This document shows, in pieces, positions 4,368 through 57,792 of a stretch of DNA of 64,000 nt. Source of the stretch: Balanoglossus misakiensis (Eukaryota; Animalia; Hemichordata). The stretch is taken from contig CM082587.2 in the NCBI GenBank assembly GCA_040954595.2, positions 9,677,403 through 9,741,402 on the forward strand. Reading direction: 5' to 3'. Below the pieces are notes generated by a model that was not told where the DNA came from, ran no database searches, and worked only from the letters and a program-made list of their open reading frames with translations. The position numbers and the translations under genes are program-made. The first letter of the stretch is position 1. Each line of letters begins with the position of its first letter.

Positions 4368-4401
4368 CCCTTACGAAAGTCACCAAGATGTAACAACCTT
4401 G
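4368..4401 (+). repeat. Left TIR of EnSpm/CACTA element
   Basis: Reverse complement of 12643-12676 (33/34 match). Confidence 0.95.
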
Positions 4402-5082
4402 TACAAGCTTGCTGCAATGTTGACACAACTTTGAAATTCTAGCTCGTTGCTTGTATAAAGGTTTTACAAGCTTGGATAGGATTATGGCTTAATTTTACAA
4501 GCTTGGATACAGCTTGTGAACAACCCCATGCAAGCTTGTACATTACACACTTGCTACAACCTTGATTGTTGCACACTTACTGTGAGCCAGAAGTTATTGT
4601 CAGACTCCTTGACTCAGAGCTTAGAACCTCATACTTTGCATTGGTTCATCTAGACCAGGGGGATTCACCCCCCTGGTCCTGTTGACATGTTGGCACCCCC
4701 AGCAATTTGTCAATGGGGGACCAGTGCCCCTTAAAATGAAGTCATTCACATGTTCGAGATATTACAGTCCCCCCCCTAAATATTCTGGCAAAGGGGGGAG
4801 GGGTCCATATCCCCCCTCTTGATAGCTTCCCGAATGAAAAATTGACTTTGAATGAAAATCCCTATTTTAACTCGCTATAATGACCAAAAACAAATCAACA
4901 CAAAGTTATTTATTGTACCTGATTCTTTATTACATAATTCAAGAAGATAAATCTGTTAAACATTACTACACTGTGGTCAACTTAACTCTTAACTTTTATA
5001 TACAAATTTACATGTCCACTTTAACGCTTAACTTTATACAAATTTACAATGTACTGGTGGCATTCATATTTTTACATGACAA

Positions 5083-7870: not shown

Positions 7871-8090
7871 ATTGTGCTTCACGATCGATCTTTTGTTCAC
7901 GTCACTGCACTGGCTGTGTGTACGTGTTATCGCGAGAAATCGCCAGTACGTCACGTGGGCTATGATATGCGCTCTGATTGGACAGTGGTTTAAGGCGCGA
8001 AATTATATCTCTATTGTAAACACAAAACCCACACTCCTCCATTCATCGCAACTGTCATGCCTGTTGAAGTACATTTGTATTCAACTAACA

Positions 8091-10497: not shown

Positions 10498-10499
10498 CC

Positions 10500-12132: not shown

Positions 12133-12642
12133 CTTACGTTTTTTTTTACAGCTAATAAATATATTGTTATTTTATTTATTTTAGAAATACATAATTATTG
12201 TCCTTAAATAGAATGTTGGTAGCTGCCTGAGAAGAATGTGATGTAGTGTATGGACTACCAATGCATTACTGGTTGTGTGTGTATATGTGAGGTGGGCTGC
12301 ATGGGTCAGGGGTCAAATGCAATGAAAGGGGGGGGGGGGCAGGGGCTGTATATGTGAAGCGTGGAGGTGTGGCTGCATTGGGTCAGGGGTCAAATGAGAT
12401 GAAGATAACACCCAACCTTGTAGCAAGCTTGCTGCACGGAGAGGACTGTACGATAATACTTCAATCATCCATCCTTGTTCCAAGCTTGCAACAACTTTGA
12501 TTCTTTTATTGATCCAACCTTCATACAAGTATCTTACCGTTTCATGTCAACCTTGTCTAACCGGTATGTAGACAAGGGTGCAGCCAAGGTGGAACTTTAT
12601 CGCTCTACATGCTTGGTGCAAGCATGGAAATAGACCATGTGT

Positions 12643-12676
12643 CAAGGTTGTGACATCTTGGTGACTTTCGTAAGGG
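12643..12676 (-). repeat. Right TIR of EnSpm/CACTA element
   Basis: CAAGGTTGTGACATCTTGGTGACTTTCGTAAGGG followed by the AG TSD. Confidence 0.95.
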
Positions 12677-33290: not shown

Positions 33291-33591
33291 AACAGAACAG
33301 TGGTCCACTTTCACGAGTTGTAGTGCACTGATCGTGGCAAGTTGATCATGGCAAAACAAACGACTATGTTAGATAGCAGTGCTTCGCAAGTTTGGCTAAT
33401 TTGTATGAAAATCATCTCGGCAAACAGTGCACTACCTTTTTCTCGCATTTGCGATTTGGCGAGCGGGTAGCGAAAACACTGCTGGCTAATCCGTTCCGAT
33501 TTCTGTCACTGTTCCAATTCTTCCTCAACACCTCAAAGCTACACACCCCTACTAGAAAATGGTATGAATTCTTGACGGACGGAAGTAGTAG

Positions 33592-36500: not shown

Positions 36501-36938
36501 ACCACCCAAAACATACTCAAATTAAATGGCCCGAAACTCCACTTTGGGAAGTTTGAGCCAAAACGAAACGATATCCGTTCAAAATATAAGATATAAAACT
36601 AATACAAAAAGCACACTTGAAACAATTCTATGCTTGCAAACGGAAACGACGCAGTGTTTATTTTACCACATTCGCTAGACGTCACTTACAAATGATATCA
36701 GAGATCGAACAGAAATACGATAAATTTTCCACTTTCAACACGATCGGACGATAGGTTACGTCTATCAAACCTGAGGAACGCAGTTTGGTGGCACAAATCT
36801 CACCTTTTGGTGTAGAAAAAGACGATTTTCTGAAACTGAAAAAATACACCAACGGTTCTCCAAGTAATGGTGGCGCTGTTGAAATTCAAAGTAAAATCTC
36901 ATTAACATATGCAAATTCACTACACAGTTTCTCGACTG
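33592..36938. mobile_element. Internally deleted, decayed DNA transposon with 4-bp TSD (Chapaev-like; superfamily uncertain)
   Basis: 32-bp TIRs CAGTCGAGAAACTG(G/T)GTAGTGAATTTGCATAT (33592-33623 and 36907-36938), flanked by a GTAG duplication (33588-33591 and 36939-36942). Contains minus-strand transposase-like remnants. Confidence 0.8.
34286..36350 (-). pseudogene. Fragmented transposase-like gene: ubiquitin-like segment, Cys-rich segment, C-terminal CXC-like Cys cluster and acidic tail
   Basis: Fragments LKNVISEELNLNTDSFKLFFQGKP / HLNIYISGFGG; CLCNSCRIC..CHICG; YWSQA...LPPYENSGY...ILWDS...GCKCKKTGCRNNTCKCKKKGMMCGPGCNCLNC; many stops and frameshifts; no catalytic core visible. Confidence 0.6.
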
Positions 36939-37190
36939 GTAGCTCATACCCAACTTGACAGACTCCTTTGTTTACACTTCGGAGCCAAAAAGGTTGGTGC
37001 GGGGGGGGGGGGGGGGGGGGTGTCTACATTGATGCACGTGGGGATATGAGAAACAAAATACTTTTTTTACAAGAAAAATCTATGCCGTCTCTCTGCCTGT
37101 ATGATTCTACTACAAGCTCTTATAGAAACATGATTATGAAATAAGTTTGCAAGACTGTATGGAAGAATATCCTGAACTCAACATCAAAGT

Positions 37191-38013: not shown

Positions 38014-38179
38014 CCTACTGTTGCTGAAAAATACTTGTATATGAAAGTTGAAACAGTGATAGTTGCACATGAGGTATCTGATATGGCATTAACATAAACA
38101 TAACAAAATAAAGTTTTGAATGTTCCTTGCAATCTGCAATTGCATGAAAATATTCTCTGTACTGTTAATAAAGTATAAT

Positions 38180-38751
38180 CAGGGGTACCTAAGAAATTGT
38201 AGTTCAGAGAAAGAAATCGGTCGTCTTGCTCCCCAACCCGGTCGGTCAGAACTATTTTCCCGTCATTCGGAACCCAAAATCTGTAGTTCAGAACTCAAGT
38301 CCCGTAATTCAGACCAGAAACGCGGCGTTCAGAAAGTGGTTTCACGCAATTTCCACCATTGAGGGCGCAAACAAGATGGCCGACCACAGTGGAAAGATCG
38401 GCGATGGTGAGTATTTTCTGTGATTTCTATATATTTATGACGATTTTTGTCACAAAATATATCGCGTACAGTGTAACTGACCAAGATGCTTAGCTTTGTA
38501 AAGTTTCACTGTTCAGTATTTCGAAATTACAGAGAAATCCGCGTCCCAGCTCTTTTACCGGGCAATCTGAAGTACACTGTGTACAAGTACACGCCAGTGT
38601 GTTTATACCATGCGATCCCTGGCAATACCACAGGCAGCTCTTCCTCCTTGTTTGTAGTATGTATGTATGTATGTATGTGTGTATGTATGTATCTAGTGTG
38701 TATGTATGTCTGTGTGTGTGTATGTATGTATGTGTTTGTTTACAAATATGG
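38180..38751 (+). repeat. Left long TIR (contains the putative promoter, exon 1 and a (TATG)n/(TG)n microsatellite)
   Basis: Reverse complement of 55871-56535 apart from a few substitutions, small indels and an 86-bp insertion in the right copy. Confidence 0.93.
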
Positions 38752-39786
38752 GCATGTTTGTTCGTTTATTTGCTTGTAAACAGGTTAAGGTTAGGATGTG
38801 TTAGGGTTGGGGTGCGCATGAGTACCCCATATTGCAAATGTTTACTTTTAGAACATGTATTGTCGCCTCGCTCTTCAAGCAAATTTTAAACCTTCATGTC
38901 CAACTCCATTAAAATTGAGTAATTTTCTCCATGATTTTTTTACTTAAATGTTGTACTTGTTTTTTTCTCCATAGCAATGCAAATTCTGCACAATATGGAA
39001 TGTGGTGAAGATGTCAGTGTCAGTTTAAAAAGCCCTAATTCAACAAGCTCTAGTGAGGGAAATGTTGGTACAGGATCGGATGCAGTTGCACCTGGTGAGG
39101 GGACCAAGACGGATAGAGTTGGTGTTGGTGATGAAGTTCAGGGCAAGAAAAAGAAAGTGGCAAAGCACATTAAGTGTGATACATGTGATAAAGTCTTTCA
39201 ATCAAAAACTGGATGGAGAAAACACTACAGGCAACACACTAAAGAGTACCCTTATAAGTGTTTCTGTGGAAAAGGCTTTTCTGAAAGACTGAGACTAAGA
39301 GAGCATTCTTGTAAACACACCAACAGGGGCATAAAAAGGTGTAATGTTTGTGGATTTGAGGCAAAAACTTACAAAGGGATGAAATCGCACACCGCATCCC
39401 ACAGCTCTGAAACTCATCCGTGTGGTAAATGCTCAAAAACTTTCAAGTCAAAGACGGCACTAACACAGCATATGAAAGGATGCCACGAAACCAACTACAC
39501 CTGCTCTTGTGGAAAAGTCTTTGGATTGAAAGCCAGGTACAACGCTTATCTGAAAGTCCATTCCGAGAAGAAAGAGTACCAGTGTTCAGCTTGCAGTTAC
39601 CAATCTTCCAGGAAAGCAGACTTCAAAAAACACATGTTGCATAAACATACTGATGCGACTCCTTTCATATGCAGTATGTGTGGGCATGGGTTTAAAACCA
39701 GAGATAAACTCATGAAAAATGAATCCCGCAAAAAACCCTGTGGTGAAACAGAACAATCATTCATGTGGGATGATATTGACTGTTAG
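38376..39786 (+). CDS. Transposon-borne C2H2 zinc-finger protein (7 fingers), 2 exons: 38376-38406 and 38975-39786
   Basis: Exon 1 ATGGCCGACCACAGTGGAAAGATCGGCGATG|gtgagt (phase 1) joins ttttttctccatag|CA ATG CAA in frame with ORF 38977-39786. Fingers e.g. CDTCDKVFQSKTGWRKHYRQH, linkers HTKEYPY and HSEKKEY. Fingers 5 and 7 lack a His ligand. Confidence 0.85.
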
Positions 39787-40194
39787 AAAACCAGGACATA
39801 TTTGTGCATTTTTTGGCCCCATTACAGGCATGCTTTCATGTACTTTTAGGTATCATTCACTATATGCACATCTATACGTATTGGTTTATGTGTGTATGCA
39901 TGTTCCTTCCACCAGTATTCCATGTCTACTGTCATCGGTAATAATTTACAACTTTTATTACATACTGCTGTGAATTTCACTTACAGTTACTATTTTCTTA
40001 TTTGCTACATCATTTTATTGTTTAGTACAAACAATCTCTGCAGATAACAAAACAGAACAGGCTTATCAGCATGTTTTGATAGGCTGTTTGTTCATGTTAA
40101 TCAAGATATTTCAAAGATATATTGTTTGCTTATTTTATTCAAAAACACAAATTTATATGAATTGAGATGATAAGAGCACAGAGTCTGCAGTCAA

Positions 40195-40784
40195 CATGTT
40201 ATTTAATATTTTATCAGTTGTTGTTTGATTGTTAAAAAATAATCCTCTGCCAGTTGGGTTATTATGCCACCTTCACCCCTAGGCCCATGTCTGTCCACTA
40301 TCAGTGTTTATATCTAAAGAAACAGCCCCTATAGTACCTGTGAAAGTGTTCCTGCATATTAGCTAAAGCCGACTGACCAGTTTTTCCAAGAGATCACCAT
40401 TCACATGTGATTAACCCCTACACAAACATTTAGAGGTTATAAACGGCTAGCGAGGGTATTTGGTTGTGTATATAAGACCTCTTAGGTGAAAATTAGCATA
40501 TTTAGCATATTTCACCCAAATATGCTAAGTTTCACCTGAGAGGTCTTATACCCACAACCAAATACCCTCGCTAGCCGTTTATAACCTCTAAATGTTTGTG
40601 TAGGGGTTAATCACATGTGAATGGTGATCTCTTGGAAAAACTGGTCATACTGGCTATTTCTTCAGATATATACACTGATAATGGACAGACATAGGTCTAG
40701 GAGTAAAGGTAGCCTAGTACCCCACTAGCAGGGGATTTGTTCCATTAAAATCAAAGAATATCTGATAAAATATTAGATAACATG
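40195..40784. repeat. ~590-bp inverted repeat/hairpin between the two convergent genes
   Basis: Near-perfect inner arms 40374-40503 and 40518-40647; more diverged outer arms 40195-40328 and 40652-40784. Confidence 0.9.
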
Positions 40785-42980
40785 CTATCTGATCCCTGTG
40801 GTAGGCGACAAGAATGAGTAATTCTTAATTGGCCTGCAAATGTTTATCGAGTTGATATTGCTTTTTATACATTGCAATAAAATGTTATTAGTTTTCGTTA
40901 GTCCAAGTATTTTCCTAAATGTTCTTATTACTACATGTAAATGTGTATCCATATGTGCAAAGTCCATTGTTTATCAACTGCATTTTAGCCAGATGATATA
41001 GAGACCAAACTGCTGAATATTTCAACACATTGATTCATTAAACTATAATACACACATTTTGCAGTATTTCGTCTACTACCAGTGTCTGTTCCACAGTTGG
41101 TCAGCTGTGAGCACCAATGGGTGTAAATTACAATTCAACATGAAATGGTACCTGAAATTTTTGTGTCCTTCAATGTATTAAAGGAAAAATATTTTCAGAT
41201 GCAACTGTATCACCCATTGATTCCAATTCCTCTTCCCCCCCCATTATCACTCCCACTTCCTCCGATCCTCACCCCATCCATATTTTTTGTGTGGATGCAG
41301 CCTTTTTCCACTTGTACATACATATATTCTGTTTTAATGACAACTAAACTGTAGACAAATTAATGCAAGTCCAGACTCAAATTCAGTACACACGTGCTGT
41401 GTTGATAAGCTAAATGCTTGGTATTTCATCATGGGTTTGAACATGAAAAAGCAGTTGATACACAAAGTAGGTACATGTATACACTTAAAATTGTTGACCC
41501 CCAAAATGTACCTATAAAGGGCAAATTCAGTACATTGTGTACTGCAAGCTAAACACAGCATTTCAACATTATTTTGGGAGATGAACATGCACGATGTTAC
41601 AAATGTAACTTTGAGCTTTTTCCGAGTCTAACGAGGGCATTGACCTTTCCCTCATTTACTTTGTGATACGATCTAACTCCTGTAACTCCCTTAGCTGGCT
41701 CATGCAGGTTAGAAAGTCCCTTGACCTTCCATCTGGCTGTCCTTCTTCTGTTAAGATTATCAAAGGGATGGTTCTGCATGTGGGAATAAAGAAAACAGAG
41801 ACTGTTTTTCTTGCCATATAAATTAGCAACTAGATATAAAAGTAAAAATGTGAACTCAATGATATTCAACAGAGCACTATTGCAAAATTGCTCAAATACA
41901 TTTGTTACACATGTACAAACAGATACTAGTAATCCGTAAGCTCCTTCTGATACACCTACCACCTGTGCTGTAAAAATTTGATGACAAAAACAAAGCAACA
42001 AACTTACATGAAGTCTTTCTCTGAAATGAACGTTGGTGGGGGAATTGGTTGACTTGAGGGTTCTGAGTCAAGCTCTAATTCCTGTTGTGGATAGATTGCT
42101 GCTGATGAAAGCCTCACCGGAAAACCTCTGTAAGTCCAAAACAATGAGCAATGACAATATGTTGTGAAAATATTTAGAAATGAACATTAATGTTAAAAAA
42201 AGTGTTTATATTGCAGGCCTTGGCCATATTGTTCTTCTGTAAATGATACCACACATTATTGTCAACCTTTTTCAACAATTTGATAGTCAAAAATATATAA
42301 GAACAAAATTATAAATCGAGGATCCATTATTCTTTAATAGTCTTATATGTCTCTTTCCAAAAAAAGTCAATACCCTACACTTTTCTGTACATGAAAGAAT
42401 TATGCTTATCACATGCTATGTACCTGCAAGGGTCATACCGTACAACCATCTCTCCACATATCTTCGCAAAACTGGTTTCCAAATCGATGCAGTTTGGGAC
42501 ACCATTTCGTGAACCTGACAATGATGCCAAACTTCCAAAGAGACTTTCACAAGGTTGACTGGTCACTGCACGTTGATTGTAGGTTCTTCGTTTTACAAGC
42601 CCACATAGTATCAGCTCTGCATCAATATTTGCAATGGTTGATTCCCATAATGCCCTTGGATATCCATGAATAAACATCCCAGGAGGTGGAAAGCTGTACA
42701 GATCAACCATTGATAACAGTGTCTCCCTGTATCTGTGCATGAAAAATGATAAAGGGATAAAACAAAACATATAGGAAATAACATCTTTCATGGGTTAACA
42801 TTAATACGTGTGATAAAAGTGTCTTAAAAGTAAAAGGAAAAAAAATGTGTTTCAAGTAAACCAGTAAACAAAACAAAACAAACAAATCAACAGACTAACT
42901 AACAAGAGCTCAGTTAAATCACATGGTATTGGTGACAATAAAATTATGAAATTAATTAAAATTAACACCAACCTTATTTT

Positions 42981-43622
42981 TGTAACGGCCTTGTTGATCC
43001 ATTGAATTTGTATACATGTATATCTGTATGTATGTTATACCTGTATCTTATAGTAATTAGTTATTCAATTATTCATATGACGTAATAGTACTTACCTTCA
43101 ATTGGTTGATCTTAATTATATGCAAACCACCTGGAAGTTTCATTTGACCAATGAACACAAGCTAATCTGGCACTATGATGTAATTGCTGATATAAAAGGA
43201 CATGGTGCATAAAATTGGTCAGTTCACCTCTGTAGCCAGACCGGCCACACACGTTGGAACTGACATGTATTTGTTCCATTTCAGGTTAGTTTCCTTGTAC
43301 CTTACCTGTTGCTTGAAGCTTTGTATTTTGGTGCATTCTACCGACTCATTTCAGCACAAGTAATTGGTGTCGTTAACTTGCGTCAATTTTCCAATTGTAT
43401 GTCTATATTTTTCACTTGAATGAATTTTGGTGTATTCTGTTGGAGGTGAACTCCCATACATGTGTGTAATTTAGCAGTTCACCTCTGTAGCCAGACCGGC
43501 CACACACGTTGGAACTGACATGTATTTGTTCCATTTCAGTTATTAAATGTAAGGCCTATGTCTTTGTTACCCGTAACCTGTTTGGTGTGAATATGTTGGA
43601 ATGAACGGCGACAACCGTGACA
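42981..43622 (+). repeat. 5' LTR (642 bp)
   Basis: TGTAACGG...CCGTGACA; no difference seen by eye from 50397-51038. Confidence 0.97.
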
Positions 43623-43624
43623 AA

Positions 43625-43643
43625 TGGCGTAGTCGGCAGGATT
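43625..43643 (+). promoter_or_regulatory. Primer-binding site, tRNA-Ser
   Basis: TGGCGTAGTCGGCAGGATT is complementary to the conserved animal tRNA-Ser 3' end AATCCTGCCGACTACG-CCA; it starts 2 nt after the LTR. Confidence 0.9.
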
Positions 43644-44695
43644 TGGCAATTCCTACGCAAGTTCTTGTTTCGGGACGGAGAGGATGATACTGACAAGTGC
43701 CATGTTTTAACTGGTCAGAAGTGTCTGGACAACGGACAACGCCCAACCAGGTGTGTCTTTCGCTGAGCTGGACGTCCTTGGGGAGCCAACCGGACTGCAG
43801 ACAGACGGGAGCCAGGTCCAAGCGTCAACGGCGAGGAAAATTCTCTGCAGAGTGCCAAGTGGTGAAGTCGCTGAACTGTTACCGGCCGGAACTGTTTAGT
43901 GTGAAGTGTTCATCGCGGTATACAAAGTATTGTGTGTCCAGAACTTGACAGTGTTATTCCGTGCGAACTATAGACAGTGCGCATAAATTCCGTCCGTGGC
44001 GCATAGTTTCCATCTGTGATAACTTCGGACTTGAACTTGTGGACTGGGTATTTTATTGCAAACGAACTTTCTGGTTATTCGCCGTAGAACCTGGTGTAAC
44101 GTAAATTTTTCTTAGAAATTTCAATATTGTCTATATAATGCAATGTGGTCAAAGTAGTTTTGACTTTGATTTAATTGTTGAAGTGGGCTCCATGTGGATA
44201 TAAACCCCTGTTTTGTTGCCTTTAGCCTGCTTTAAACGAAAAAAAATATATATATAAATTTTATTTTCTTTCAACAGTATATTTTGGTTAAGTGCTGAAG
44301 TATAATTTTCTTTGTAAATTTCAGTTCATTATTTTCCAAACGACGTGGAAAAAAAAATTGTCAGCACTTGTTGAAAAAAAAATATTAAGTTATAAGTTAA
44401 ATATTGTATAGTGACTTGAGTTAGTTTATTATTGTATTAGTTATTTAGTTGTTTCATTATTATTGAGACTGTCCATGAATGGTCGTATTCATCCAAATCA
44501 TACATTAGTCTCTATAGAACCTTTGGCAGTGTCTGTAAGCTATTCTACGCTTATTTCATTCCCTGTTAACGTATGTGCTATGCCAGTAGATACTGATATT
44601 ATTGTTAAGATTTTCCAGTGAAATAGCTTGCATTGCATCGTATTTAACGACACGTCAGAGTCCTCCCAAATTGCCTCTCATTTTATGGAAAAAAA

Positions 44696-46120
44696 ATGGC
44701 TGTGTCCAAAATATCAATTCAAGAGCGAAGCATTTATGTGCAACACTTGCCTTTTGAATGTACAAAGAAACATTTTAGAGAAGTTATCGAGTTACAGCTT
44801 GGTTTGGCCCAGGTTGATCAAATTTATATTTCTGATAAAGATTCCGCTTTTGTCATATTTGAGAATATAGAATCAGCCACAGCCGCTCTGCCAGTAATAC
44901 ATAAAAGCACTTTTGAAGAAAGCAAATTACGGGCAAGTCGTGTGACCACAGCCCGAGGGTTGGAACTGTGGCATTTAATTGAGGAAACCGAACAAAGTAC
45001 TGGCCTAGATTACAATGAAACCAGTGATCCCAAGACATCCAAACCCAAAGCAGATGTACAGGAAATTATTAACATGTTGAGTTTACTGTCTGAAGCAGAT
45101 AGGAAAGCGGTTGCACAGGCCATATCACCTGCTCCACTGAAACCAATCGTATCAACCCCTATGCCACAGCCGATTCCATTTCCAGCATTTCCAGTACCAA
45201 CTTCAGTTGCAGATTCTTCACCATTTATTATGTCTTCACCTGCCCAAGCAGCTGCTGCACAGCCAGCCACAGCCACTACTGCTTTTCACTCGGTGGAATT
45301 CCCAAGAATAGTCGTCTTCTCTGGCAAAGGTGATGTCACTTATGAAATGTGGCGATATGAAGTTCGAGCACTACAGAGGGAGAATGTGTTTCCGGAGACC
45401 ATAATTATGCAGGCTGTTCGGAAATCCCTACGAGCGTCCGCTGCTGAAGTCCTACTACATATGGGAGAAGACATCACAGTGTCCCGATTGATGGCGAAGA
45501 TGGACATGGTCTTTGGGAAAGTATTGCCACCGGAAGCAGTTTTGGAAAAATTCTATACAGCACGACAAACGAAGACAGAAAAGGTAGCAGAATGGGCCTG
45601 TCGCATCGAAGGACTTTTGGATGAACTCAGATCAGGTCAGTCCATCTCTAGTAATTCAGAAGAAACCATGCTTCGAACCAAATTCTTTTCTGGCCTGTCA
45701 GATGAGCACATTAAGAATGCAATCAGACACCGATATGATACAGGAGAAGATTATTCAGGATTGTTGCTAGCCGCAAGAAAGTTTGAAGTAAATAGGGAGA
45801 CCACTACCAGGGTTCACCAAGCAACTGTTGCTGACAAGACGATGATAACCAAATTGGAGGAACTTACCAAAGGTCTGAAGAACTTAGCTGAGAAGGTTGC
45901 TGAACTAGAGAAGCGAACTTCAACATCATCAACTCCAGAGTCTACTTTTCGCCGACATGTCAACAATGAAAATGGCCGGGATCGGCGTGGCAACGATGGA
46001 ACTCGCCAACCCAAACAAGTTTTCCCAGGCAACTGCTTCAAGTGTGGTGAACATGGACACAAAAAGACAGACTGTCCTTTAAATGGGGAGCGACCAGGCA
46101 TCCGGAGGGACATGCGCTAG
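44696..46120 (+). CDS. gag: Gag (PNMA/Ma-like capsid) with N-terminal RRM-like domain and CCHC zinc knuckle
   Basis: RNP2/RNP1-like SIYVQHLP...SAFVIFEN; capsid FSGKGDVTYEMWRYEV...VRKSLRASAAEVL; CFKCGEHGHKKTDC. Confidence 0.93.
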   Translation: MAVSKISIQERSIYVQHLPFECTKKHFREVIELQLGLAQVDQIYISDKDSAFVIFENIESATAALPVIHKSTFEESKLRASRVTTARGLELWHLIEETEQSTGLDYNETSDPKTSKPKADVQEIINMLSLLSEADRKAVAQAISPAPLKPIVSTPMPQPIPFPAFPVPTSVADSSPFIMSSPAQAAAAQPATATTAFHSVEFPRIVVFSGKGDVTYEMWRYEVRALQRENVFPETIIMQAVRKSLRASAAEVLLHMGEDITVSRLMAKMDMVFGKVLPPEAVLEKFYTARQTKTEKVAEWACRIEGLLDELRSGQSISSNSEETMLRTKFFSGLSDEHIKNAIRHRYDTGEDYSGLLLAARKFEVNRETTTRVHQATVADKTMITKLEELTKGLKNLAEKVAELEKRTSTSSTPESTFRRHVNNENGRDRRGNDGTRQPKQVFPGNCFKCGEHGHKKTDCPLNGERPGIRRDMR

Positions 46121-49100
46121 GTCGGAACGGTAACAGTCCCTCTAATGTTATTGATTCGTTAATAGGCCACGCCAATGAAACTGAGATTGTGTTGGAAGGA
46201 TCCTCGTGTATTGCGCTGATAGACACCGGGTCCATGGTATCTACTGTTGCTGACACTTTTAACAGAGAGAAGCTACAGAAACCAATTCATGACCTGAACA
46301 ACTTGGTGAAGGTAGAAGGGGCTAGTGGTACAGAAGTTCCTTACCTTGGTTATATTGAAGTTGAAGTGAAATTCCCAGATAGCCATGGACAAGAGATGTC
46401 TAAAGATATATTATTGCTTGTTGTTGAAGACACGGAATATAATCAGATGGTTCCAGTTGTGATAGGCACAAATGTTCTCCAACATTTTGTGGATGAAGAT
46501 ACACAGTACAATACAGACCTATCCTCAGTATGGAGACTAGCATACCAAGCGACTATCCACCGGCAGAGGGCCGAAGGTAGGACATTTACAGTTACCACTA
46601 CTAAACCCACAACCATTGGACCATACGAACGCACAGTCATCCATGGATTTTGCAGAGTGGACCTAAGAAATTGTCAATCAGTAGTTGTGGTGGAACCAGA
46701 AAATGACAGACTTTTACCTGGTGGTTTACTTGTTACTCCAGCCGTGTTGAAGTTAGAGCCTCGTGGTAATTCGTGTCGAATCCCAGTAATGGTGACCAAC
46801 TATGGAGCACGTGCTGTCACAGTTCCCCCTAAAAGCACCCTATGTAACATGAACTTAGCATCTAATGTCTCACAGCCTTTAGATCCATATGGAGATGATA
46901 TTGATACAAACTCAGATGGGACCACCTCACCAAAAGTACCCGATTGGCTGATAAAAGACCTGGGATTACAAGAGGCAGATACAGAATTAACAGAAATCCA
47001 GAAAGACCAAGCCTTGGCTACCATTGGTAAATGGCAAACCGTGTTCTCTACAGGTGAGAGAGATTTGGGACACACAACATTGGTAACACATTCGATAAAG
47101 TTAACGGATGAAACCCCCTTTAAAGATAAATACCGTCGAATCCCTATGGGTATGTACGAAGAATTGCAACAGTACCTGCAAGATATGCTACAGAGTGGTG
47201 TGATTAGAGAATCAAACAGCCCGTGGTCCTCAAATGTTGTATGTGTCAGAAAACCTGATGGGAAGCTGAGGGTGTGTATTGATTATAGACGTCTCAACGC
47301 CAAAACCATTAAAGACGCTTACGCATTACCCCGGGTATTGGATACGCTTGATAACCTTAGTAACGCCGAGTGGTTTTCATCGCTTGATCTACGGTCTGGA
47401 TATTACCAAGTAGAGATGGCGGAAGACGACAAAGCGAAGACAGCTTTCACGGTGGGAAACTTCGGCTTATTTGAATTCAACCGTATGTCTATGGGTCTGA
47501 CCAACGCACCTGCAACTTTCCAGCGTCTCATGGAGAAGTGTTTTGGAGAATTGGCGTTCAGAGAATGTTGTGTGTATTTAGATGACATCATAGTATTTTC
47601 GAAGACTTTTGAAGACCACCTCAATAGATTGGAGCGGGTATTCCAGCGGCTGGCATCACATGGATTAAAGTTGAAGGCAACGAAATGTGTTTTATTCCAG
47701 AAGAAGGTGAAATATCTTGGACACGTGGTATCAGCCGACGGAATTACAACGGACCCAGACAAGGTAGCAGCTCTGAAGGAATGGCCAATACCCACTACTG
47801 TAACAGAACTGAGAAGATTTCTTGGATTTGCAGGGTATTACAGGAGATTTATCCAAAGCTACAGTAATATTGCCAAGCCACTTAACGACTTGCTGTGTGG
47901 ACGTCAGTCAAGGAATAAGGCGGGAAAATTTGAAAAACTCCAGTGGGGACAACAGGAACAACAAGCTTTCGACACTCTGAGGAAGAGCCTAATGTCGTCA
48001 CCAATACTAGCCTTTGCTGACTACTCACTTCCATTTGAAATACATACTGATGCAAGTTCCACAGGTCTGGGAGCAGTGCTGTATCAACGCCAGAAAGGTA
48101 TTCTCAGAGTAATTGCCTATGCAAGTAGAGGACTCACCAAGTCTGAAAGTAATTATCCAGCTCATAAATTAGAATTTTTGGCACTGAAATGGGCCGTCAC
48201 CAAGAAGTTCAACGACTACCTGTATGGAAGCAAATTCACTGTGTTTACAGACAACAACCCTTTGACGTATGTGTTAACTTCTGCGAAACTGGATGCGGTG
48301 GGACACAGATGGTTGTCAGACTTGTCATTGTACGACTTCTCTATTGTTTACCGGAGTGGTAAGAAGAATATAGAGGCTGACGCTTTGTCTAGGATTCCAT
48401 GGAATAGAGAGAATCCAGAGACGGAAACCAATCTGGGAGCCGATGTAGTCCAGGCGCTTTGTCGAGCAACAGAAGGTCCATACGTAACTTCATTCGGAAT
48501 GGTAGCAGATGAGGACAGACCTGCAGTAGTTCAAGGTGGGGATGATGTGTTCTGGAAGACGGAGCAGTCCAAAGATTCAATAATACGGTATGTGACTGAT
48601 CAGCTTGAAAAGGACCACAAACCACTTATGAGAGATCATACAGGAGATATCAGACTACTTATACGAGATTGGAAACGCCTTGTTCTGAAGAATGGAGTCC
48701 TATACAGGAAATGCTTCATCGATGATATACAATATTTGCAACTTGTCTTACCAGTACACCATAGAAAAGATGTCCTGGAGGAACTACATGATAAACTTGG
48801 ACACTTTGGCCAAGATAAAACCCTGGATCTGGTACGACGAAGATTCTACTGGCCTAGGATGTCGATGGATGTTCAAAAGAAAGTGGAACATTGTTTACCA
48901 TGCATTCGCAGGAAAAGTTCAACTTCCTTACCCAGAACTCCCTTGGTTAATATTCACACATCACAACCGATGGAAATGGTGTGCATCGACTTTCTCCATA
49001 TACCAACACCAGATCAAGGATATAGCAACATATTAGTGATGACGGACCATTTCACTCGATACGCTATAGCAGTACCTACAAAGAACCAGTCTGCCAAAAC

Positions 49101-50337
49101 AACTGCCAAAGCATTGTTTGAACATTTGATTTTGCATTATGGGTTCCCAGGACGATTACACAGTGACCAGGGGCGAAACTTTGAGTCGTCTACAATTCAG
49201 GAACTTTGCCGAATAGCTAATATTAAGAAGTCCAGGACCACTCCATACCACCCCCAGGGAAATGGAATGTGCGAACGATTTAATAAGACGTTATTACAGA
49301 TGCTTGGAACTATGAATGAAGACAACAAAACAAGATGGGCTTCACATGTCAATACGATGGTTAATGCCTATAATTCTACAAAGCATGAAAGCACCGGATA
49401 TTCACCTTTCTTTTTGATGTTTGGTCGTGAACCAAGACTGCCTATAGATGTATCTGGACATGCAGACCAGACCAACCTAGAATATGGTGGAACAGTTTCA
49501 GATTATGTGACGAAACTTGCCGAACGGTTGGATTACGCCTATAAAGTAGCAACGGAACGGTCTGTTAAGTCTGGTGAACGGCAGAAGAAGTCATATGATA
49601 GAAAAGTGAAGGTGGCCATAATACAACCTGGTGATACTGTGTTGGTGAAGAATACAGGACCTAAAGACAATTACAAATTGGCAGACCAATGGGAAAAGGA
49701 TCCATATACAGTGATTTCACAGCCCATAGAAGACATTCCAGTATACGTGGTACAAAAACAAGTTAAGGGTGGAAGGAAGCGGACACTACATAGAAATTTG
49801 CTACTCCCAATACCAATAATTCCGGACGAACTGGATGACGATGTTAACACCAAGATGACGCAGCGTGATGTTAAGCAGAGTGTACCGGGTGTTATCAACG
49901 ATGCTACCCAGGATGCAGTGGACGAAGAGGATGACGGCATTGGTAAATTGCAATTCGTGTCAACTATCAACTTGCCAACAGAACACAATGCTCTTAATCC
50001 TACTGCTGCAGAATTCATCCCATCCAGAAGAGAAAGTTCCCTGATGGACAACCCCACAGGTATGGTTAATCCGGATGGACCTTCTCAAATACTTACCTCA
50101 GATTTCTCGAATCATATTTTGCAAAGTACGGATGGTTGGTCATCGAGCGATCCAGATGGTATCACTCCTGCTACAACCAACATCAGTCCTGACTCCAGTA
50201 GTAGTACTCAACCTGAACCACGCTATCCTACACGACAGAGACGACCTCCAGATAGATATAGTCCCGAACAATGGAATCTAAAACAGTTTGCTCATACGAC
50301 TTTATCTTCTATACCATTTATTAATTGCCACTATTAA
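46078..50337 (+). CDS. pol: Pol polyprotein (protease, RT, RNase H, integrase), probably expressed by -1 frameshift
   Basis: LIDTGS, YLDDIIVFS, TDASSTGLGAVL, H-H-C-C zinc finger, D-D-E integrase (HSDQGRNFES). The pol frame is open from the slippery heptamer T TTA AAT at 46078-46084. Confidence 0.96.
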   Translation, partial: FKWGATRHPEGHALGRNGNSPSNVIDSLIGHANETEIVLEGSSCIALIDTGSMVSTVADTFNREKLQKPIHDLNNLVKVEGASGTEVPYLGYIEVEVKFPDSHGQEMSKDILLLVVEDTEYNQMVPVVIGTNVLQHFVDEDTQYNTDLSSVWRLAYQATIHRQRAEGRTFTVTTTKPTTIGPYERTVIHGFCRVDLRNCQSVVVVEPENDRLLPGGLLVTPAVLKLEPRGNSCRIPVMVTNYGARAVTVPPKSTLCNMNLASNVSQPLDPYGDDIDTNSDGTTSPKVPDWLIKDLGLQEADTELTEIQKDQALATIGKWQTVFSTGERDLGHTTLVTHSIKLTDETPFKDKYRRIPMGMYEELQQYLQDMLQSGVIRESNSPWSSNVVCVRKPDGKLRVCIDYRRLNAKTIKDAYALPRVLDTLDNLSNAEWFSSLDLRSGYYQVEMAEDDKAKTAFTVGNFGLFEFNRMSMGLTNAPATFQRLMEKCFGELAFRECCVYLDDIIVFSKTFEDHLNRLERVFQRLASHGLKLKATKCVLFQKKVKYLGHVVSADGITTDPDKVAALKEWPIPTTVTELRRFLGFAGYYRRFIQSYSNIAKPLNDLLCGRQSRNKAGKFEKLQWGQQEQQAFDTLRKSLMSSPILAFADYSLPFEIHTDASSTGLGAVLYQRQKGILRVIAYASRGLTKSESNYPAHKLEFLALKWAVTKKFNDYLYGSKFTVFTDNNPLTYVLTSAKLDAVGHRWLSDLSLYDFSIVYRSGKKNIEADALSRIPWNRENPETETNLGADVVQALCRATEGPYVTSFGMVADEDRPAVVQGGDDVFWKTEQSKDSIIRYVTDQLEKDHKPLMRDHTGDIRLLIRDWKRLVLKNGVLYRKCFIDDIQYLQLVLPVHHRKDVLEELHDKLGHFGQDKTLDLVRRRFYWPRMSMDVQKKVEHCLPCIRRKSSTSLPRTPLVNIHTSQPMEMVCIDFLHIPTPDQGYSNILVMTDHFTRYAIAVPTKNQSAKTTAKALFEHLILHYGFPGRLHSDQGRNFESSTIQELCRIANIKKSRTTPYHPQGNGMCERFNKTLLQMLGTMNEDNKTRWASHVNTMVNAYNSTKHESTGYSPFFLMFGREPRLPIDVSGHADQTNLEYGGTVSDYVTKLAERLDYAYKVATERSVKSGERQKKSYDRKVKVAIIQPGDTVLVKNTGPKDNYKLADQWEKDPYTVISQPIEDIPVYVVQKQVKGGRKRTLHRNLLLPIPIIPDELDDDVNTKMTQRDVKQSVPGVINDATQDAVDEEDDGIGKLQFVSTINLPTEHNALNPTAAEFIPSRRESSLMDNPTGMVNPDGPSQILTSDFSNHILQSTDGWSSSDPDGITPATTNISPDSSSSTQPEPRYPTRQRRPPDRYSPEQWNLKQFAHTTLSSIPFINCHY

Positions 50338-50396
50338 TCAAATATCTTTAACTTACTTTAAATGACGAGGACGCCATTTCTCCTCGCAGGGGTGCG

Positions 50397-51038
50397 TGTA
50401 ACGGCCTTGTTGATCCATTGAATTTGTATACATGTATATCTGTATGTATGTTATACCTGTATCTTATAGTAATTAGTTATTCAATTATTCATATGACGTA
50501 ATAGTACTTACCTTCAATTGGTTGATCTTAATTATATGCAAACCACCTGGAAGTTTCATTTGACCAATGAACACAAGCTAATCTGGCACTATGATGTAAT
50601 TGCTGATATAAAAGGACATGGTGCATAAAATTGGTCAGTTCACCTCTGTAGCCAGACCGGCCACACACGTTGGAACTGACATGTATTTGTTCCATTTCAG
50701 GTTAGTTTCCTTGTACCTTACCTGTTGCTTGAAGCTTTGTATTTTGGTGCATTCTACCGACTCATTTCAGCACAAGTAATTGGTGTCGTTAACTTGCGTC
50801 AATTTTCCAATTGTATGTCTATATTTTTCACTTGAATGAATTTTGGTGTATTCTGTTGGAGGTGAACTCCCATACATGTGTGTAATTTAGCAGTTCACCT
50901 CTGTAGCCAGACCGGCCACACACGTTGGAACTGACATGTATTTGTTCCATTTCAGTTATTAAATGTAAGGCCTATGTCTTTGTTACCCGTAACCTGTTTG
51001 GTGTGAATATGTTGGAATGAACGGCGACAACCGTGACA
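50397..51038 (+). repeat. 3' LTR (642 bp)
   Basis: Direct repeat of 42981-43622, preceded by a short purine-rich tract GCAGGGGTGCG. Confidence 0.97.
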
Positions 51039-54000
51039 TTTTCATTGTAAACCTGTCAACTGCAGATATTCCAGGTTCATCCATTGACAGAAACCATTCT
51101 CTCACAAGTTTACAATGGCTGGCAGAGGATGTGTACCCTTTCTTTTCCAACTCATCCTGGACTTCTTCAGAAAACATAATGAGTGCAAAATCAGTACACT
51201 GCATATCCAGACTTTCTTCAACCATACCAAGTTTCAGCTGTGTAGTGTTGTCTGCTGCTACTTCTAAGAAGTGCCTCTTTTTTGCTTGCCCAAGGTCCCT
51301 CTTGCACAAAGCAGATCTATGCCTGGTCAACAAGTGATGAGGGTCTATTTTCCTAACTAAAAGTTCATCCCGTTTTGTGGAATATTCTGGTATGTAGAAC
51401 CAATTTATCCCAGAGTGTTCATTTAATTCAGGAATATCCATGTTGTGCTTGATTTTGGACTCACGTTTCCACTTTTCCACTCTTTCTTGAAATTTCCAAT
51501 TAGCATAAGAAACAGAAAGAGCGTTCTTTGCGTAGCCTTTGCTATTCAAAATATTCAGGCACAAAACTGACAGTTTATGGGGTGACTTTGAACTTCTTGA
51601 AGTGCTGACTTCACCAGGGATATGGAGAACATTCTTCAAGCACCTGAGAAGAGCTTCCTTGCGACCAGCCATTGTGACATTTTGGTGTTTATGTTCCTTC
51701 AGGTATTTTAATATTACTTTCAATTCCAAAACCGTAAGCCTGGAAAGACTTTCGCAGCTTTGCAGTTGTTGTCCTATATCATTGATACCCTTATTATTCC
51801 ATTTCGTTGTTTGATCTTTCAGCAATGTTAAAATATTGTGAATATCATTTTCATGTAGTACAGAGTTAATCTCATCAGAATGCAAATCCAAGTCAATTTC
51901 TGTCGATGTAACTCTTTCTTCTCTTTCATCTTCTGATGCATCACTGTTACTTGAACTACTGTTCCGTCCTTCATTGTTGGTGTCTTCATCTTCATCGAGA
52001 TCTATGTTAACCAAATTCCTTTCAACCACTTCTTCCTGTTGTTTTTGTTGCTGTTGATTTTCATTGTCCATTAATGTCTCATCCTCCAGTGAAATAACAC
52101 ATTCTGGAAGCTCTGCCATTAATTGCTGAACCAGCTGCCTATCAGGCTCTTCTATTTGTTGTGACACTTCTTTGTGATCATTGCTGTTTAAAAGAGCAAC
52201 TACTGTCTGTGGAACCTTGACACTTTCACGGTGACCAAGTGTAATAGTAATTACACCACCCACATTTACAGTTTTCTTGATGATATCTTCCATCTTTGCT
52301 ACTTTATTGACATTTCTTATTTCTGAGATAATTTGATTCTTTGGCATCTGACATACCTCCTTCCAGAACATCCTCTGCAATTCCATAAGAGTTAAAGGCT
52401 GTCCATCCTTGCTGGTTTGCAACAAAGGTAAACACTGGCCGTCAAAGCTCTGCACAGGACAGTGAATTCCTCTGCTATGGCAGTAATCCAGAACATCTTC
52501 TAATATACCTCTAACAACACTGGTTGGTAAACTGTAACCCCTCAGAAAATAGCAAACAGGTGTCCCATGTGTCAGTTCAGCAGACCATAATCTGTCCGTG
52601 TTGCTGGCGACAAGTGCTACAACTTCAGTAGCTTTCTTCCTTGATAATTGGTAGTGCTGCTTCATGTAGTAGATAACTTCATTCAAAATGTCACCAAGTT
52701 GTGATAATGGAAGCTCTTGCATCTTGGGAGGTGAATTTGTAACAAAGCTGTTGTGTATCTCATTTGATGTGTATGGATTAGGATTATCTTCAGATATTGT
52801 AACAATCCTGTCTTCAAATAAACATGCGTGTACTGATGTCAATTCACCAACAACTTTGCAATACTTTGGAATATTGGTTCCGACCATTTCTTTAATAGCC
52901 TTTGCTGTGGTAGAAAGCTTGCTTGGACATCTTGTCACTTCTCTACCATAAATATCATTGAGCTCCTTCTCAATGAGAGGCCAGATTTCATCATCTTTTT
53001 CTACCCTGAATGCCTTGGTTGTTTCTTCTGTCCATACACAAAATAAACACCACTGAATGTTTGGCTTACTCCTTATTTCTGATTGTACTTGTAAGTAGTA
53101 GCGTTTTGGAATGGTATCTGGTATTTTACCACTTTTTGGGCATTTACACTCCACAGCAGCTATGTCTTCATGGCTGATGTTACAATGAAGGAATCCATCC
53201 GGTGAAATAACCATGTCAACATTCCCAACTGTCAGCTTGAAAGCACCAACTTCCAACAGACAACAATTTGGAAACAGTGCAGGTAAAAACTTGGTTGCCA
53301 ATGTAGCCAATGAGCATATTTCATGCTTGGTACCCCAATCCATAGCTTCCTGAGTAGACTTGTCAGGTGGTGGCTTTTCAAATCCAAGCACTTTTTGCTG
53401 ATAATGCTCCCTTTGAGCTTTTAAGCCCGCACAGCCAACAGCATTAAATAGTGTGCTTGCAGTAGCTTTCACATCTTTACGTGCCTGAAACCATAATGAA
53501 GATCTCTGCTTGATGTATGGGAGTCCTTTGTTGATTACAGACTGGGCAAAGTTCTCAAGATGTTCTTCGCCACTACCAAGAAAGAGATCTATATCATGCA
53601 AAGCATGGTACCTGCTGCATTCTTCAATGCGAACTATTGGCAATGATACCCAATGAGCTGGGTCACTAACCAATGCAGCACAGGCTTCTGCAATACGCTC
53701 TCTGAGCTGGTCACCAATGGCATTAAGTTCTTTGAGTTCCACTATGTTTGCTGTCACTACACTTATTGGGTATTGGTACTTTGGTGATCCAGCGTCAACT
53801 GCTGCACGAGCTCTTAGCTTTTCCAATGCGTAACTCTTCTTCTCAAGTGTGTTTCTTGTTTCAGACTTCTTCACTGAAAGTGTCGTCAATACATTCCGAA
53901 GCCTTTCCAATGTTCTGCTTGTATCAATGTTATACGAGCATGATCCTGTATCAGTGCACACCTGCTTCTTGATGGATTTCACATACTGTACTTCTTCTAA

Positions 54001-55870
54001 ATGAACTTGTTTTTTTACTTCTGGTGACACACTACCAATTTCATTCTCTCTGCCAAGGAGATTTATGTCCCCTTTATCACCTTTCACACCAGGTGAAACC
54101 TTCTTTCCATCAAGTGAAATGCAAATACTGGTATCTTGATGCGCAACTGCAAGTTTGTTGACAATGTTCACACATATCCCAGGTGGAATACTTTTCGGCC
54201 ACTCACCATTATAAGGATCAAATGATTTCAAAACATCCTCATTTGGGATTGCAAGGATAATATCTGCTTCATCTCCTGAAAAACTGCCTTTCTCTCCTTT
54301 ATTCAGTAGAACTGTCCCTGCATGCTTCCATCCAGACAGAAAACGAAGGGGAGCTCCACCAAACTTATTTATAAATGTCTTCCAGAAAATTTTACTCTTG
54401 TGACTGAATCTCATTTCTGTCAGAGAAGATGAATTAAGTGCCTTCACTGTATCCAAAAATATGTGATATGTTACACTGTCTGGTTTGAGTGATCCATTAC
54501 CAATGCACAGTAGAAGTTCTTTAAGTAAGTTTCCTTCTTCAAACTCACTCAGAATACTGAAACAAAGGTCAATCAAATTACTCATAGCAGAGTCCTGTCT
54601 GTTTGTGATATTTTCAGACTCCACACTACCTCTCCCAATCGAATCATCATCAGGCAAGTTTGAAGTTGATATGTCTTGTGAAGGACCAACACCATTTTCT
54701 CTAGCATCAGTAGTTGCAGATGATGGGTGTACACCAGACGCAACTTCTGTTTGTTCTGGCATCTTATTGTTTACATCTTCAGGTGACTGAAAACTTTTAC
54801 AGGCTGGTATACTAAGGATGGAACCACCACAGCCACACACATCACATATTTCGCACGCTATGAGTAATGAATGGTGACATGGACTCGCTGTGCTCTTATT
54901 TGGATGTTTAAGTCTGTTGGTCGTTCCACAATTTGAACAAAGTATGCCATAAACCTCATCAGAACCAATCAAAATGTCAGATATCTTGATACTAGTATGA
55001 CATGTCATACACACCAGTTCATCATGACTTGTATCCTCATCAAAGGGAGCTGTCCGTTCCTCGGGAATCACTGCAATTTCTTTTGGTGACACTGGATAAA
55101 TACATCTACTTCGATACTTCACAGGTGTACTATGACACAATGGTTTTGATACCTCCTCCTCCTCCTCTTCATGGTTAAAATCTATATAAAAAATGTATGC
55201 AATTGTCAAAGCAAAATATAACAAATCAATCCTGCGGATTCCAACAGGTCACTTTAAAATTTTTCAGTTTTCTACAACATCATAAACTGTACATGATAGA
55301 ATGGTGATAGTACACCATGGACACTCAAAGAAATTGTATTTTCTTCCTGTGTCTGCTATAGGAGGAAATAACTCATTTCCCACTCAAAACTACCCAAAGT
55401 TAACCCTTTCACCACCATGGTTCAGTCCAAGCCCATTGTTTTCTATGGTAAGGTTGAACCACTATTAAAGGGAAGTGGGGGTGAAAGGCTTAAATAACCG
55501 CAGTATGATATCTTTGCATTTACACTTTACAAGTAACTCTTTTAAACTTACCACTGTATGTGTCAGTCCTTTTTCTCCTTTTATGTCTGTCTAATGATAA
55601 AAAGAGTTTTGATTTCCGTTTTCTACATGGCCTGTTTTCTGGTGTTTCTACATTAAAAAAGTAAATGATGTAATTATAAAACTTCAGAAAACATTCAAAA
55701 TTGATTTTAAAACAAAAAAATATATTCTACCAAAAAGGAAAGTTTGGGGCTAAATCGTACAGTATAACAATAATGAAAGAAAAAAAATGTTGCCGGTTTC
55801 AATGTGAGTTGAATTGGTAGAAAAATGCAAATGAACCGATTTTACTTATTTATTCAACAAGCAAACTTAA

Positions 55871-56535
55871 CCATATTTGTAAACAAACAAACAAACAAAC
55901 AAACAAACACACACACATACATACATACACACACACACACATACATACATACATACTACAAACAAGGAGGAAGAGCTGCCTGTGGTATTGCTGCAGTTTG
56001 CAGCCCCTCCATCTCCCCTGGGCGATTTTTGGTTTTCGCCCAGGGGAGATGGAGGGGCTGCAGACTGCAGCAACCTGTGGTATTGCCAGGGATCGCATGG
56101 TATAAACACACTGGCGTGTACTTGTACTATATACACAGTGTACTTCGGATTGCCCGGTAAAAGAGCTGGGACGCGGATTTCTCTGTAATTTCGAAACACT
56201 GAACAGTGAAACTTTACAAAGCTAAGCATCTTGGTCAGTTACACTGTACGCGATATATTTTGTGACAAAAATCGTCATAAATATATAGAAATCACAGAAA
56301 ATACTCACCATCGCCGATCTTTCCACTTTGGTCGGCCATCTTGTTTGCGCCCTCAATGGTGGAAATTGCGTGAAACCACTTTCTGAACGCCGCGTTTCTG
56401 GTCTGAATTACGGGACTTGAGTTCTGGACTACAGATTTTGGGTTCCGAATGACGGGAAAATAGTTCTGACCGACCGGGTTGGGGAGCAAGACGACCGATT
56501 TCTTTCTCTGAACTACAATTTCTTAGGTACCCCTG
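55871..56535 (-). repeat. Right long TIR (contains exon 1 of the transposase gene)
   Basis: Inverted copy of 38180-38751; the ATG lies 196 nt from the terminus in both TIRs (38376 and 56339). Confidence 0.93.
55988..56073. mobile_element. 86-bp palindromic mini-insertion (micro-MITE) in the right TIR
   Basis: ~38-bp arms TTGCTGCAGTTTGCAGCCCCTCCATCTCCCCTGGGCGA / TCGCCCAGGGGAGATGGAGGGGCTGCAGACTGCAGCAA, flanked by a CCTGTGGTA duplication (55979-55987 and 56074-56082). Absent from the left TIR, which has a single copy of the target. Confidence 0.85.
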
Positions 56536-56639
56536 ATAATGTCTGCTCCTAATTCTGCAAAATGTGTCATACTAAAATGTTATCATTAGTGACACTATGA
56601 CTAATAATAAAATATCATACTCTCCCCTTATGTATTTCA

Positions 56640-57792
56640 GGTCCGTGGCTAATTGCGGCCAAGTGAAACGCCTATCTGTAATCCAGACCAACCGATTCCT
56701 TATTTGACGTTGTTTCCGTCTGTTTCGAATACCGAACCACTATTACGTATTCACTTTCTAAAATGTCGAGTGAATCTACAAGTTGTCATTTGGGAGTTGA
56801 TATTGTATTTCTTTTTTCGATTTTCGAAAATTGAATTACAAACAGGGTTTCACAGTTCTACCAATCGTGTGTTCTTTTACTGGAAAGTTAGGGAGCTAGC
56901 TATTAACCATTGCTACATTGTTACATTTTGTTCTGTTTTGAGGGAAAACACCCGTTCTTTTTGGCCCAATACATCTTCAACCAAAAACATTGACGACGCA
57001 TCAACACATTTCCCGACAGCATGTTCAGTTGAACCACTGTAACCGGCGTTTTTAGTTCATAAATTTCATCGCATACACGGATGCAGATCGACATTTTCCG
57101 TTCAATTCAGTGCACGTAACCTTGAATGCCAGTACACTAGCCTTGCCATGCGAACTAAAACAAGTTTGCTTGAACTTCTACAACTAATTAAATATTAATG
57201 AAAAGTAAAACAATTAACTAATGAGATACCGGGACATAATTCAAGAAACGCCTATGCCTGATTTATGTAAATTGTGCTGCTTTCATAGCGTGGGAACGTC
57301 CACTTCTTCACTAATACATGTCCCAAATATAGCAATGTGTAAATTTACGGTTAAGGAGATATCGTTGAATATTCATAAAAAGAAAACATTAAGCCAATGG
57401 GATTTTAGAATGTAGAGTGAAGGGAGTGTCTATGACCTTCATGACATTGATGTATTGATCTTTATTGTCAGAAGGGTCATGGAACGTCCCTTAAAACGTA
57501 GCAAAATGTAACAATGTAGCAAGGGTTAATGGCCAGCTCCCTAACTTTCCAGTAAAAGAACACAGGATTGGTAGAACTGTGAAACCCTGTTTGTAATTCA
57601 ATTTTCGAAAATCGAAAAACGAAATACAACATCAACACCCAAATGCCAACTTGTAGATTCACTCGACATTTTAGAAAGTGAATACATTATAGTGGTTCGG
57701 TATTCGAAACAGACGGAAACAACGTCAAATAAGGAATCGGTTGGTCTGGATTACAGATAGGCGTTTCACTTGGCCGCAATTAGCCACGGACC
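56640..57792. mobile_element. Non-autonomous TIR element, ~300-bp TIRs, 6-bp TSD
   Basis: GGTCCGTGGCTAATTGCGGCC... / ...GGCCGCAATTAGCCACGGACC; ATTTCA duplicated at 56634-56639 and 57793-57798. Confidence 0.92.

Follow-up and report, generated by a model that had tools for sequence, protein, structure and literature searches.

A coding exon within the terminal inverted repeats that likely begins both genes of a P-like DNA transposon in Balanoglossus misakiensis

Can the terminal repeat of a transposon encode the beginning of two unrelated proteins? This question is raised by a DNA transposon at positions 38180–56535 of a 64,000-nucleotide stretch of the genome of the hemichordate Balanoglossus misakiensis, the whole of which is called the window here. 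The element is 18,356 bp long, or approximately 10.3 kb without a nested retroelement, and carries two convergent genes, one entering from each terminal inverted repeat (TIR): a zinc-finger (ZF) gene on the forward strand and a transposase gene on the reverse strand. Its ends start with CAGGGG, and it is flanked by a 5-bp target duplication, ATAAT (38175–38179 and 56536–56540), whose length is known from this single insertion. The analysis led us to conclude that a short coding exon held in each TIR is likely the real start of both the P-like transposase and the ZF protein. The coordinates of the features are collected in Table 1.

The initial annotation of this DNA had described an ATG 196 nt from each end, a 31-nt exon, and a GTGAGT donor in both TIRs, and had joined the left copy to a ZF exon and the right copy, through a small basic exon, to the large transposase exon; all of its coordinates hold. 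The ATGs lie at offset 196 of the TIRs, at 38376 on the forward strand and at 56339 on the reverse strand. Alignment of the element ends showed four differences between the TIR copies in the first 401 nt, one of which lies in codon 4 of exon 1 (His versus Gln). The left exon 1 and 38975–39786 form an open ZF frame of 280 residues through a phase-1 join, and the right exon 1, 55647–55552 (96 nt), and the sequence from 55181 onward form an open transposase frame, again through phase-1 joins. The acceptors at 38975, 55647, and 55181 all consist of an AG behind a pyrimidine run. With an ad hoc score built on a consensus, the GTGAGT donor ranks first among 91 GT in the left 921 nt and first among 113 GT in the right 1436 nt; by pyrimidine count, the acceptor at 38975 is second of 35 AG and that at 55647 third of 70. 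A strong-context ATG followed by a stop-free GTRAG within 10–60 nt was found for 6 of the 161 such ATGs in 33001–64000, two of the six being the TIR copies. Because this pattern occurs at that frequency, the anatomy of exon 1 taken from the sequence alone is only suggestive; moreover, the two copies are one repeat and not independent observations.

The transposase gene appears to depend on exon 1. Without it, the reading frame of the window transposase offers no ATG until residue 58 of exon 3, and the protein would begin inside its Cys cluster and lose the basic motif encoded by exon 2. An in-frame ATG in the intron upstream of exon 2 was ruled out, a stop being met first. A loose form of the basic motif is present within the first 45 residues of 11 of the 46 long proteins.

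The evidence carrying the conclusion comes from RefSeq gene models of Ptychodera flava, whose transposases are the nearest to that of the window (2 matches among 7,989 candidates scored, 59–70% identical). The transposase P0003 (XP_070550840.1) and the ZF protein P0159 (XP_070550844.1) are identical at residues 1–10 (10/10) and share 1/30 of residues 11–40, the sequences parting at residue 11; among the proteins compared, the next longest start in common with P0159 is three residues. Each of the two is located on a 448,434-bp contig, and their accessions are four apart. A second copy is represented by the ZF protein P0161, a near copy of P0159, and P0004, a piece of a transposase; their accessions, XP_070546555.1 and XP_070546556.1, follow each other directly, on a contig of 29,013,476 bp. 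P0003 begins with Met-Ala-Asp, seven residues, and Glu, followed by the basic motif of window exon 2. Residue 11 is G, G, D, and E in P0159, P0161, P0160, and P0003, respectively, all specified by codons starting with G (4/4 models, two of them near copies; background 30%), as must be the case if a 31-nt exon with a terminal G is joined in phase 1. These results agree with the proposal of the initial annotation that the TIR provides the start codon and the first splice donor of both proteins, and we infer from the sequence that exon 1 is spliced to both genes in this window. The conservation in related elements that had been suggested as a check was seen for the arrangement but not for the peptide, of which only 4 of 10 residues match between P0003/P0159 and the window. 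P0160, which represents a second P. flava ZF family, opens with a different ten-residue Met-Ala module, and the three start modules (window, P0003/P0159, and P0160) have 2–4 of 10 residues in common. The comparison of the sequences thus indicates that the arrangement, not the peptide, is conserved between families. No other transposase among the proteins compared shares its start with a ZF protein, the partner transposase of P0160 not being among them.

The ZF homologs in P. flava are 49–55% identical to the window ZF, which lacks two His residues kept in 3/3 homologs in the alignment. An earlier ZF search had yielded a single match among 83 candidates, a fish protein unrelated to the ZF, although P0159–P0161 were within its length range, so that its blanks are weak. 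A search scored on 84 finger residues and seeded with N-terminal peptide words of P0003 gave 2 matches among 38 candidates, both of them P. flava ZFs with 65% identity over 96–98% of the query. The ZF gene has one coding exon, which opens with a phase-1 acceptor, and could in principle be a host gene captured recently through the TIR donor. This idea seems scarcely credible given that the P. flava homologs have the same start module and that two of them adjoin transposase models by accession; as judged from the sequences, the ZF would be a standing partner of the transposase and no fresh capture. The suggestion of the initial annotation that the TIRs act as exon traps for new cargo is likewise unsupported.

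Several observations weigh against a shared coding exon. One of the four TIR differences alters codon 4 and so gives no indication that the protein sequence of exon 1 is constrained. Within the TIR, at 38657/55956, there is an AG with a richer pyrimidine run, the use of which would lead to a stop. The seeding of the ZF search favours matches having the start of P0003; one of the matches, P0160, lacks the seed words, and both were scored on the fingers. P0005 and P0009 of P. flava and P0010 of amphioxus start at Met-Pro in the basic motif and have no mini-exon, so that the shared start may be confined to one sub-lineage. In addition, the P. flava evidence consists of predicted gene models, and the assignment of the two genes to the same element is based on equal-size contigs and accession order. 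As RefSeq XP models are predictions and YY1-like motifs with an ATG are common in repeats of the B. misakiensis genome, the shared start might be an echo of annotation, the predictor taking the same strong ATG and donor from identical TIRs with neither gene being so spliced. We regard this as very improbable: an echo would leave the transposase without a usable start, and it would have to be by chance that an ATG in frame, the ten codons, and a donor in phase 1 persist across three families sharing only 2–4 of the ten residues. Finally, the window ZF has an ATG of its own two bases past the acceptor (38977), with a purine at −3, and Met is also present at this place in P0159 and P0161. Exon 1 might therefore be included in both transcripts and code only for the transposase, with the ZF starting at 38977, or the left copy might be a passive by-product of TIR homogenisation; the agreement in frame between exon 1 and the ZF has a 1 in 3 chance. 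However, the exon 1 ATG is located upstream of 38977, in frame and in a stronger context, and 3/3 ZF models of P. flava open with the ten-residue module, including P0160, which has Leu at the position of the post-acceptor Met and therefore needs an upstream start. We consider this reading unlikely and retain the shared coding exon.

The transposase has a large number of relatives. A profile search gave 243 clusters at E ≤ 1e-30 and 1,723 at E ≤ 1e-3, some of the latter possibly matching the nuclease only. In a 44-row alignment of near full-length sequences, picked by coverage from approximately 157, the first Asp is present in 37/37 rows, the second in 43/44, DxxH in 44/44, and Glu in 43/43, in agreement with the window residues; of the nuclease residues, E is found in 42/43 rows, D in 43/44, and ExK in 44/44. 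Six of the 10 relative records looked up are named (two from amphioxus, two from an annelid, and one each from P. flava and a snail), with the labels "uncharacterized", "hypothetical", or only "YqaJ". Pfam matches in 35 relatives were YqaJ in 22 and PF21787 in nine (two above the curated cut-off), and no THAP match was obtained in these relatives, the window open reading frame (ORF), P0003, P0005, or P0007. The N-terminal regions of P0014, P0033, P0041, P0058, and P0102 contain Cys-x2-Cys...His, a segment resembling one C2H2-type finger joined to the transposase; of the five, P0041 alone has a Pfam finger match, which is weak. Pattern scans for relatives gave 0/197 in viral contigs and 0/83 and 0/193 in prokaryote genomes. 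One of 473 pattern matches, on a metagenome contig (L001:1-4278) in which no element ends were found, is a relative with the whole DDE core in one frame.

A predicted structure of this relative, L001 (pLDDT 82), was similar to the P-element transposase 6p5a, with Z 30.0, a root-mean-square deviation of 2.9, and 363/442 residues aligned. A point against carrying this result over to the window is that L001 is only 28% identical to the window protein. Residues 276–480 of the model match lambda-type exonucleases (Z ~15.6). The next transposase after P was RAG1 (Z 10.5), with RAG1/Transib at 8–10.5 and Hermes at 9.5, and 6p5a was the only Foldseek match at E ≤ 0.001. Sequence searches of the PDB missed the P transposase, one of them finding exonucleases only. 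Atlas matches to P-element clusters, with scores of 0.79–0.91, are leads only. The element has the inverted repeats, target duplication, and DDE transposase of a TIR DNA transposon, and the P-type fold and the DDE triad with D(2)H between the second Asp and Glu of the P superfamily, which transposes in a GTP-dependent manner. Two marks of that family, the N-terminal THAP domain (as judged by Pfam, the N-terminal part being outside the model) and a target duplication of 7–8 bp, were not found, and we therefore filed the element as P-like.

The likeness to the P superfamily (P element, 1360/Hoppel, and Galileo) includes the transposase fold (6p5a/6pe2, Z 30), the DDE triad plus D(2)H motif (PMC3698922), the PF21787 matches, and, for Galileo, the long TIRs (PMC3688188). 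The target duplications are 8 bp for the P element and 7 bp for 1360 and Galileo (PMC3698922); a duplication of 7–8 bp was rejected here, as 5 bp was observed. The present element differs further in having no THAP match and a second, convergent ZF gene, and in that a lambda-exonuclease domain and other inserts divide the catalytic core. With the Repbase transposon classes (PMC4455052) as background, other memberships were also rejected. The 5-bp duplication would fit Transib/RAGL but is AT-rich, whereas RAG/Transib target duplications are GC-rich (PMC10629977); the ends are CAGGGG and not the CAC heptamer, the fold match is Z 8–10.5 for RAG1/Transib (~10 for RAG1) versus 30 for P, and the partner is a C2H2 ZF protein, with no RAG2-like gene here. 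Membership of KolobokE, a nuclease-bearing transposon (PMC9587614), was rejected as well. ISL2EU has YqaJ in a separate ORF, an AT duplication, and a THAP transposase (PMC4482050), none of which is present here. In both, a PD-(D/E)xK exonuclease accompanies a DDE transposase (PMC9587614 and PMC4482050), but here the exonuclease follows the first catalytic Asp and precedes the second. Word matching in the open-access literature turned up neither a transposon with a TIR-borne coding exon common to its two genes nor a P-like element with YqaJ built into it; Repbase Reports, not covered by it, may list the lineage.

Convergent genes also begin within the terminal repeats of some densoviruses and fungal linear plasmids, and in maize MuDR the start codons of mudrA and mudrB are outside the TIRs. 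The promoters and transcription starts of the two convergent MuDR genes are located in TIRs of ~215 bp; as described, these TIRs hold promoters and starts, not coding exons (PMC3440606). The MuDR transposase is a different one. ProtoRAG has tail-to-tail genes, a 5-bp duplication, and TIRs that both drive transcription, one TIR element of which, TR5 (GCCATCTTG), is bound by YY1 (PMC7481187). Read on the opposite strand, TR5 gives the 9-mer at the exon 1 ATG, but the ATGs of ProtoRAG lie far inside the ends, approximately 1800 and 600 bp of upstream sequence having been cloned (PMC7481187). In P. flava RAG2L-A, reverse transcription PCR showed that the start codon comes from a 9-codon upstream exon; this exon lies between the large exon and the TIR and serves one gene only (PMC10629977). 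The 9-mer over the exon 1 ATG also has the context (AAGAUGG) of TISU (translation initiator of short 5′ untranslated regions), an element of human promoters in which a single motif serves as YY1 site and start codon; TISU is described in host genes with very short 5′ untranslated regions (PMC2518114).

The YY1-type motif that the initial annotation saw over the ATG, CAAGATGGC, is indeed present, but it also occurs at 60087 and 63507, outside the element, and hence is not specific to it; the 9-mer was rejected as evidence by itself. YY1/TISU-like ATG motifs at 36484, 58260, 60087, and 63507 are closer to the consensus than the TIR copy. By analogy with these systems, it is plausible that the TIR contains the promoter and 5′ untranslated region and that YY1 has a role; the claim that TIR sharing enforces co-regulation of both genes is unsupported. 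The five TCAGA copies upstream of the ATG are candidate protein-binding sites (a 5-mer count of five was reached in 9 of 1000 shuffles), and our guess is that they are bound by the ZF, which would take over the part of THAP.

The present copy is young but probably dead. A Gypsy long terminal repeat (LTR) retrotransposon has been inserted close to a transposase splice donor, 4 nt away from it, interrupting the end of exon 3. Its gag (RRM, PNMA, and CCHC) and pol frames are open, and its LTRs are identical over 642/642 bp, indicating a very recent insertion. Transposase exons 5 and 6 do not match in phase, probably owing to a frameshift. Because of the insertion and this probable frameshift, the copy is unable to make a whole transposase. 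Where the 3′ ends of the genes face each other (40188–40791), nested palindromes with 130-bp arms (97% complementary) and outer arms (75%) are probably a non-autonomous element. A further 306-bp inverted repeat pair (95% complementary) is located at 56640–57792, 100 bp past the right element end. On the other side, 75–33000 is an array in which a ~130-bp satellite is repeated ~184 times, in places at spacings of 163 and 196 bp. Within the satellite, an element at 4368–12676 has 34-bp inverted ends, an ORF matching Transposase_21/DUF1258 (EnSpm-like), and a divergent ORF with a weak BEN match. A 39-bp inverted pair at 33589–36941, around an ORF piece with a Tesmin/CXC match (34417–34866), is likely another decayed transposon.

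Table 1. Features of the transposon and its immediate flanks, in window coordinates
Feature	Position	Strand	Basis
Left target-site duplication, 5 bp	38175..38179	.	Identical bases beyond right end
Left TIR, ~572 bp; holds exon 1 and ~345 nt of intron 1	38180..38751	+	Alignment of both ends
Five TCAGA copies, spacing 42, 42, 21, 20 nt	38204..38333	+	5-mer count
CAAGATGGC 9-mer over start codon	38372..38380	+	Reverse complement of ProtoRAG TR5 element
Left copy of shared coding exon 1 (10 codons + 1 nt), followed by GTGAGT donor	38376..38406	+	Anatomy; homolog N-termini
ZF gene exon 2, tandem C2H2 fingers	38975..39786	+	Pfam zf-C2H2
Transposase exon 6 with stop codon	41597..41773	-	39/57 identical to P0003 1612-1668
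Transposase exon 5, phase mismatched to exon 6	42008..42127	-	Exon comparison
Transposase exon 4, catalytic Glu region	42424..42732	-	91/102 identical to P0003 1468-1569
Last 4 nt of transposase exon 3, severed by Gypsy element	42973..42976	-	Exon anatomy
Nested Gypsy LTR retrotransposon, 8058 bp, 4-bp duplication; foreign to host element	42981..51038	+	gag and pol Pfam matches
Transposase exon 3, with Cys-rich N-terminal part, YqaJ/lambda-exonuclease domain between first and second Asp, and DxxH	51039..55181	-	831/1337 identical to P0003
Transposase exon 2, 96 nt, basic motif, no in-frame ATG	55552..55647	-	Motif common to P0003, P0005, P0009
Right TIR, ~665 bp, with 7-nt and 95-nt insertions	55871..56535	-	Alignment of both ends
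Palindromic mini-element, 86 bp, 9-bp duplication, within right TIR only (intron 1)	55988..56073	.	Sequence inspection
Shared coding exon 1, right copy, 31 nt, then GTGAGT donor	56309..56339	-	Anatomy; P0003 N-terminus
Right target-site duplication, 5 bp	56536..56540	.	Matches left one

We propose that each TIR would fire an inward transcript from its outer ~190 bp, that translation would begin at the ATG within the YY1-type 9-mer, and that the GTGAGT donor would be spliced in phase 1 to the first gene-specific acceptor past the TIR, 38975 on the left and 55647 on the right. As both TIRs must stay alike, a change in exon 1 would reach both genes, and the peptide would therefore drift (2–4 of 10 residues identical) with the Met-Ala start, length, and phase persisting. 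Exon 1 would then be a start-and-splice module rather than a peptide with a function of its own. Like the P-element transposase, that of the present element would act by cut and paste, and the inserted lambda-type exonuclease would likely process DNA ends. More tentatively, and as a possibility that we would not favour at present, there may be a P-like branch in hemichordates, amphioxus, molluscs, and annelids with a lambda exonuclease in the core, in which a ZF partner replaces THAP and binds 21-bp-phased TIR repeats, one sub-lineage having moved the promoters of both genes into the TIR along with their start codon and first exon, so that the TIR end would be at once the substrate, the promoter, and the N-terminus of both subunits.

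If the shared exon is true, it would extend the "promoter in TIR" of MuDR and ProtoRAG to a "first coding exon in TIR". Two unrelated proteins would share an N-terminus through inverted duplication and not through alternative splicing, and their start modules would evolve in step. The family is also a wide one, the 243 clusters at the stricter threshold pointing to P-fold transposases with a lambda exonuclease inside the catalytic core.

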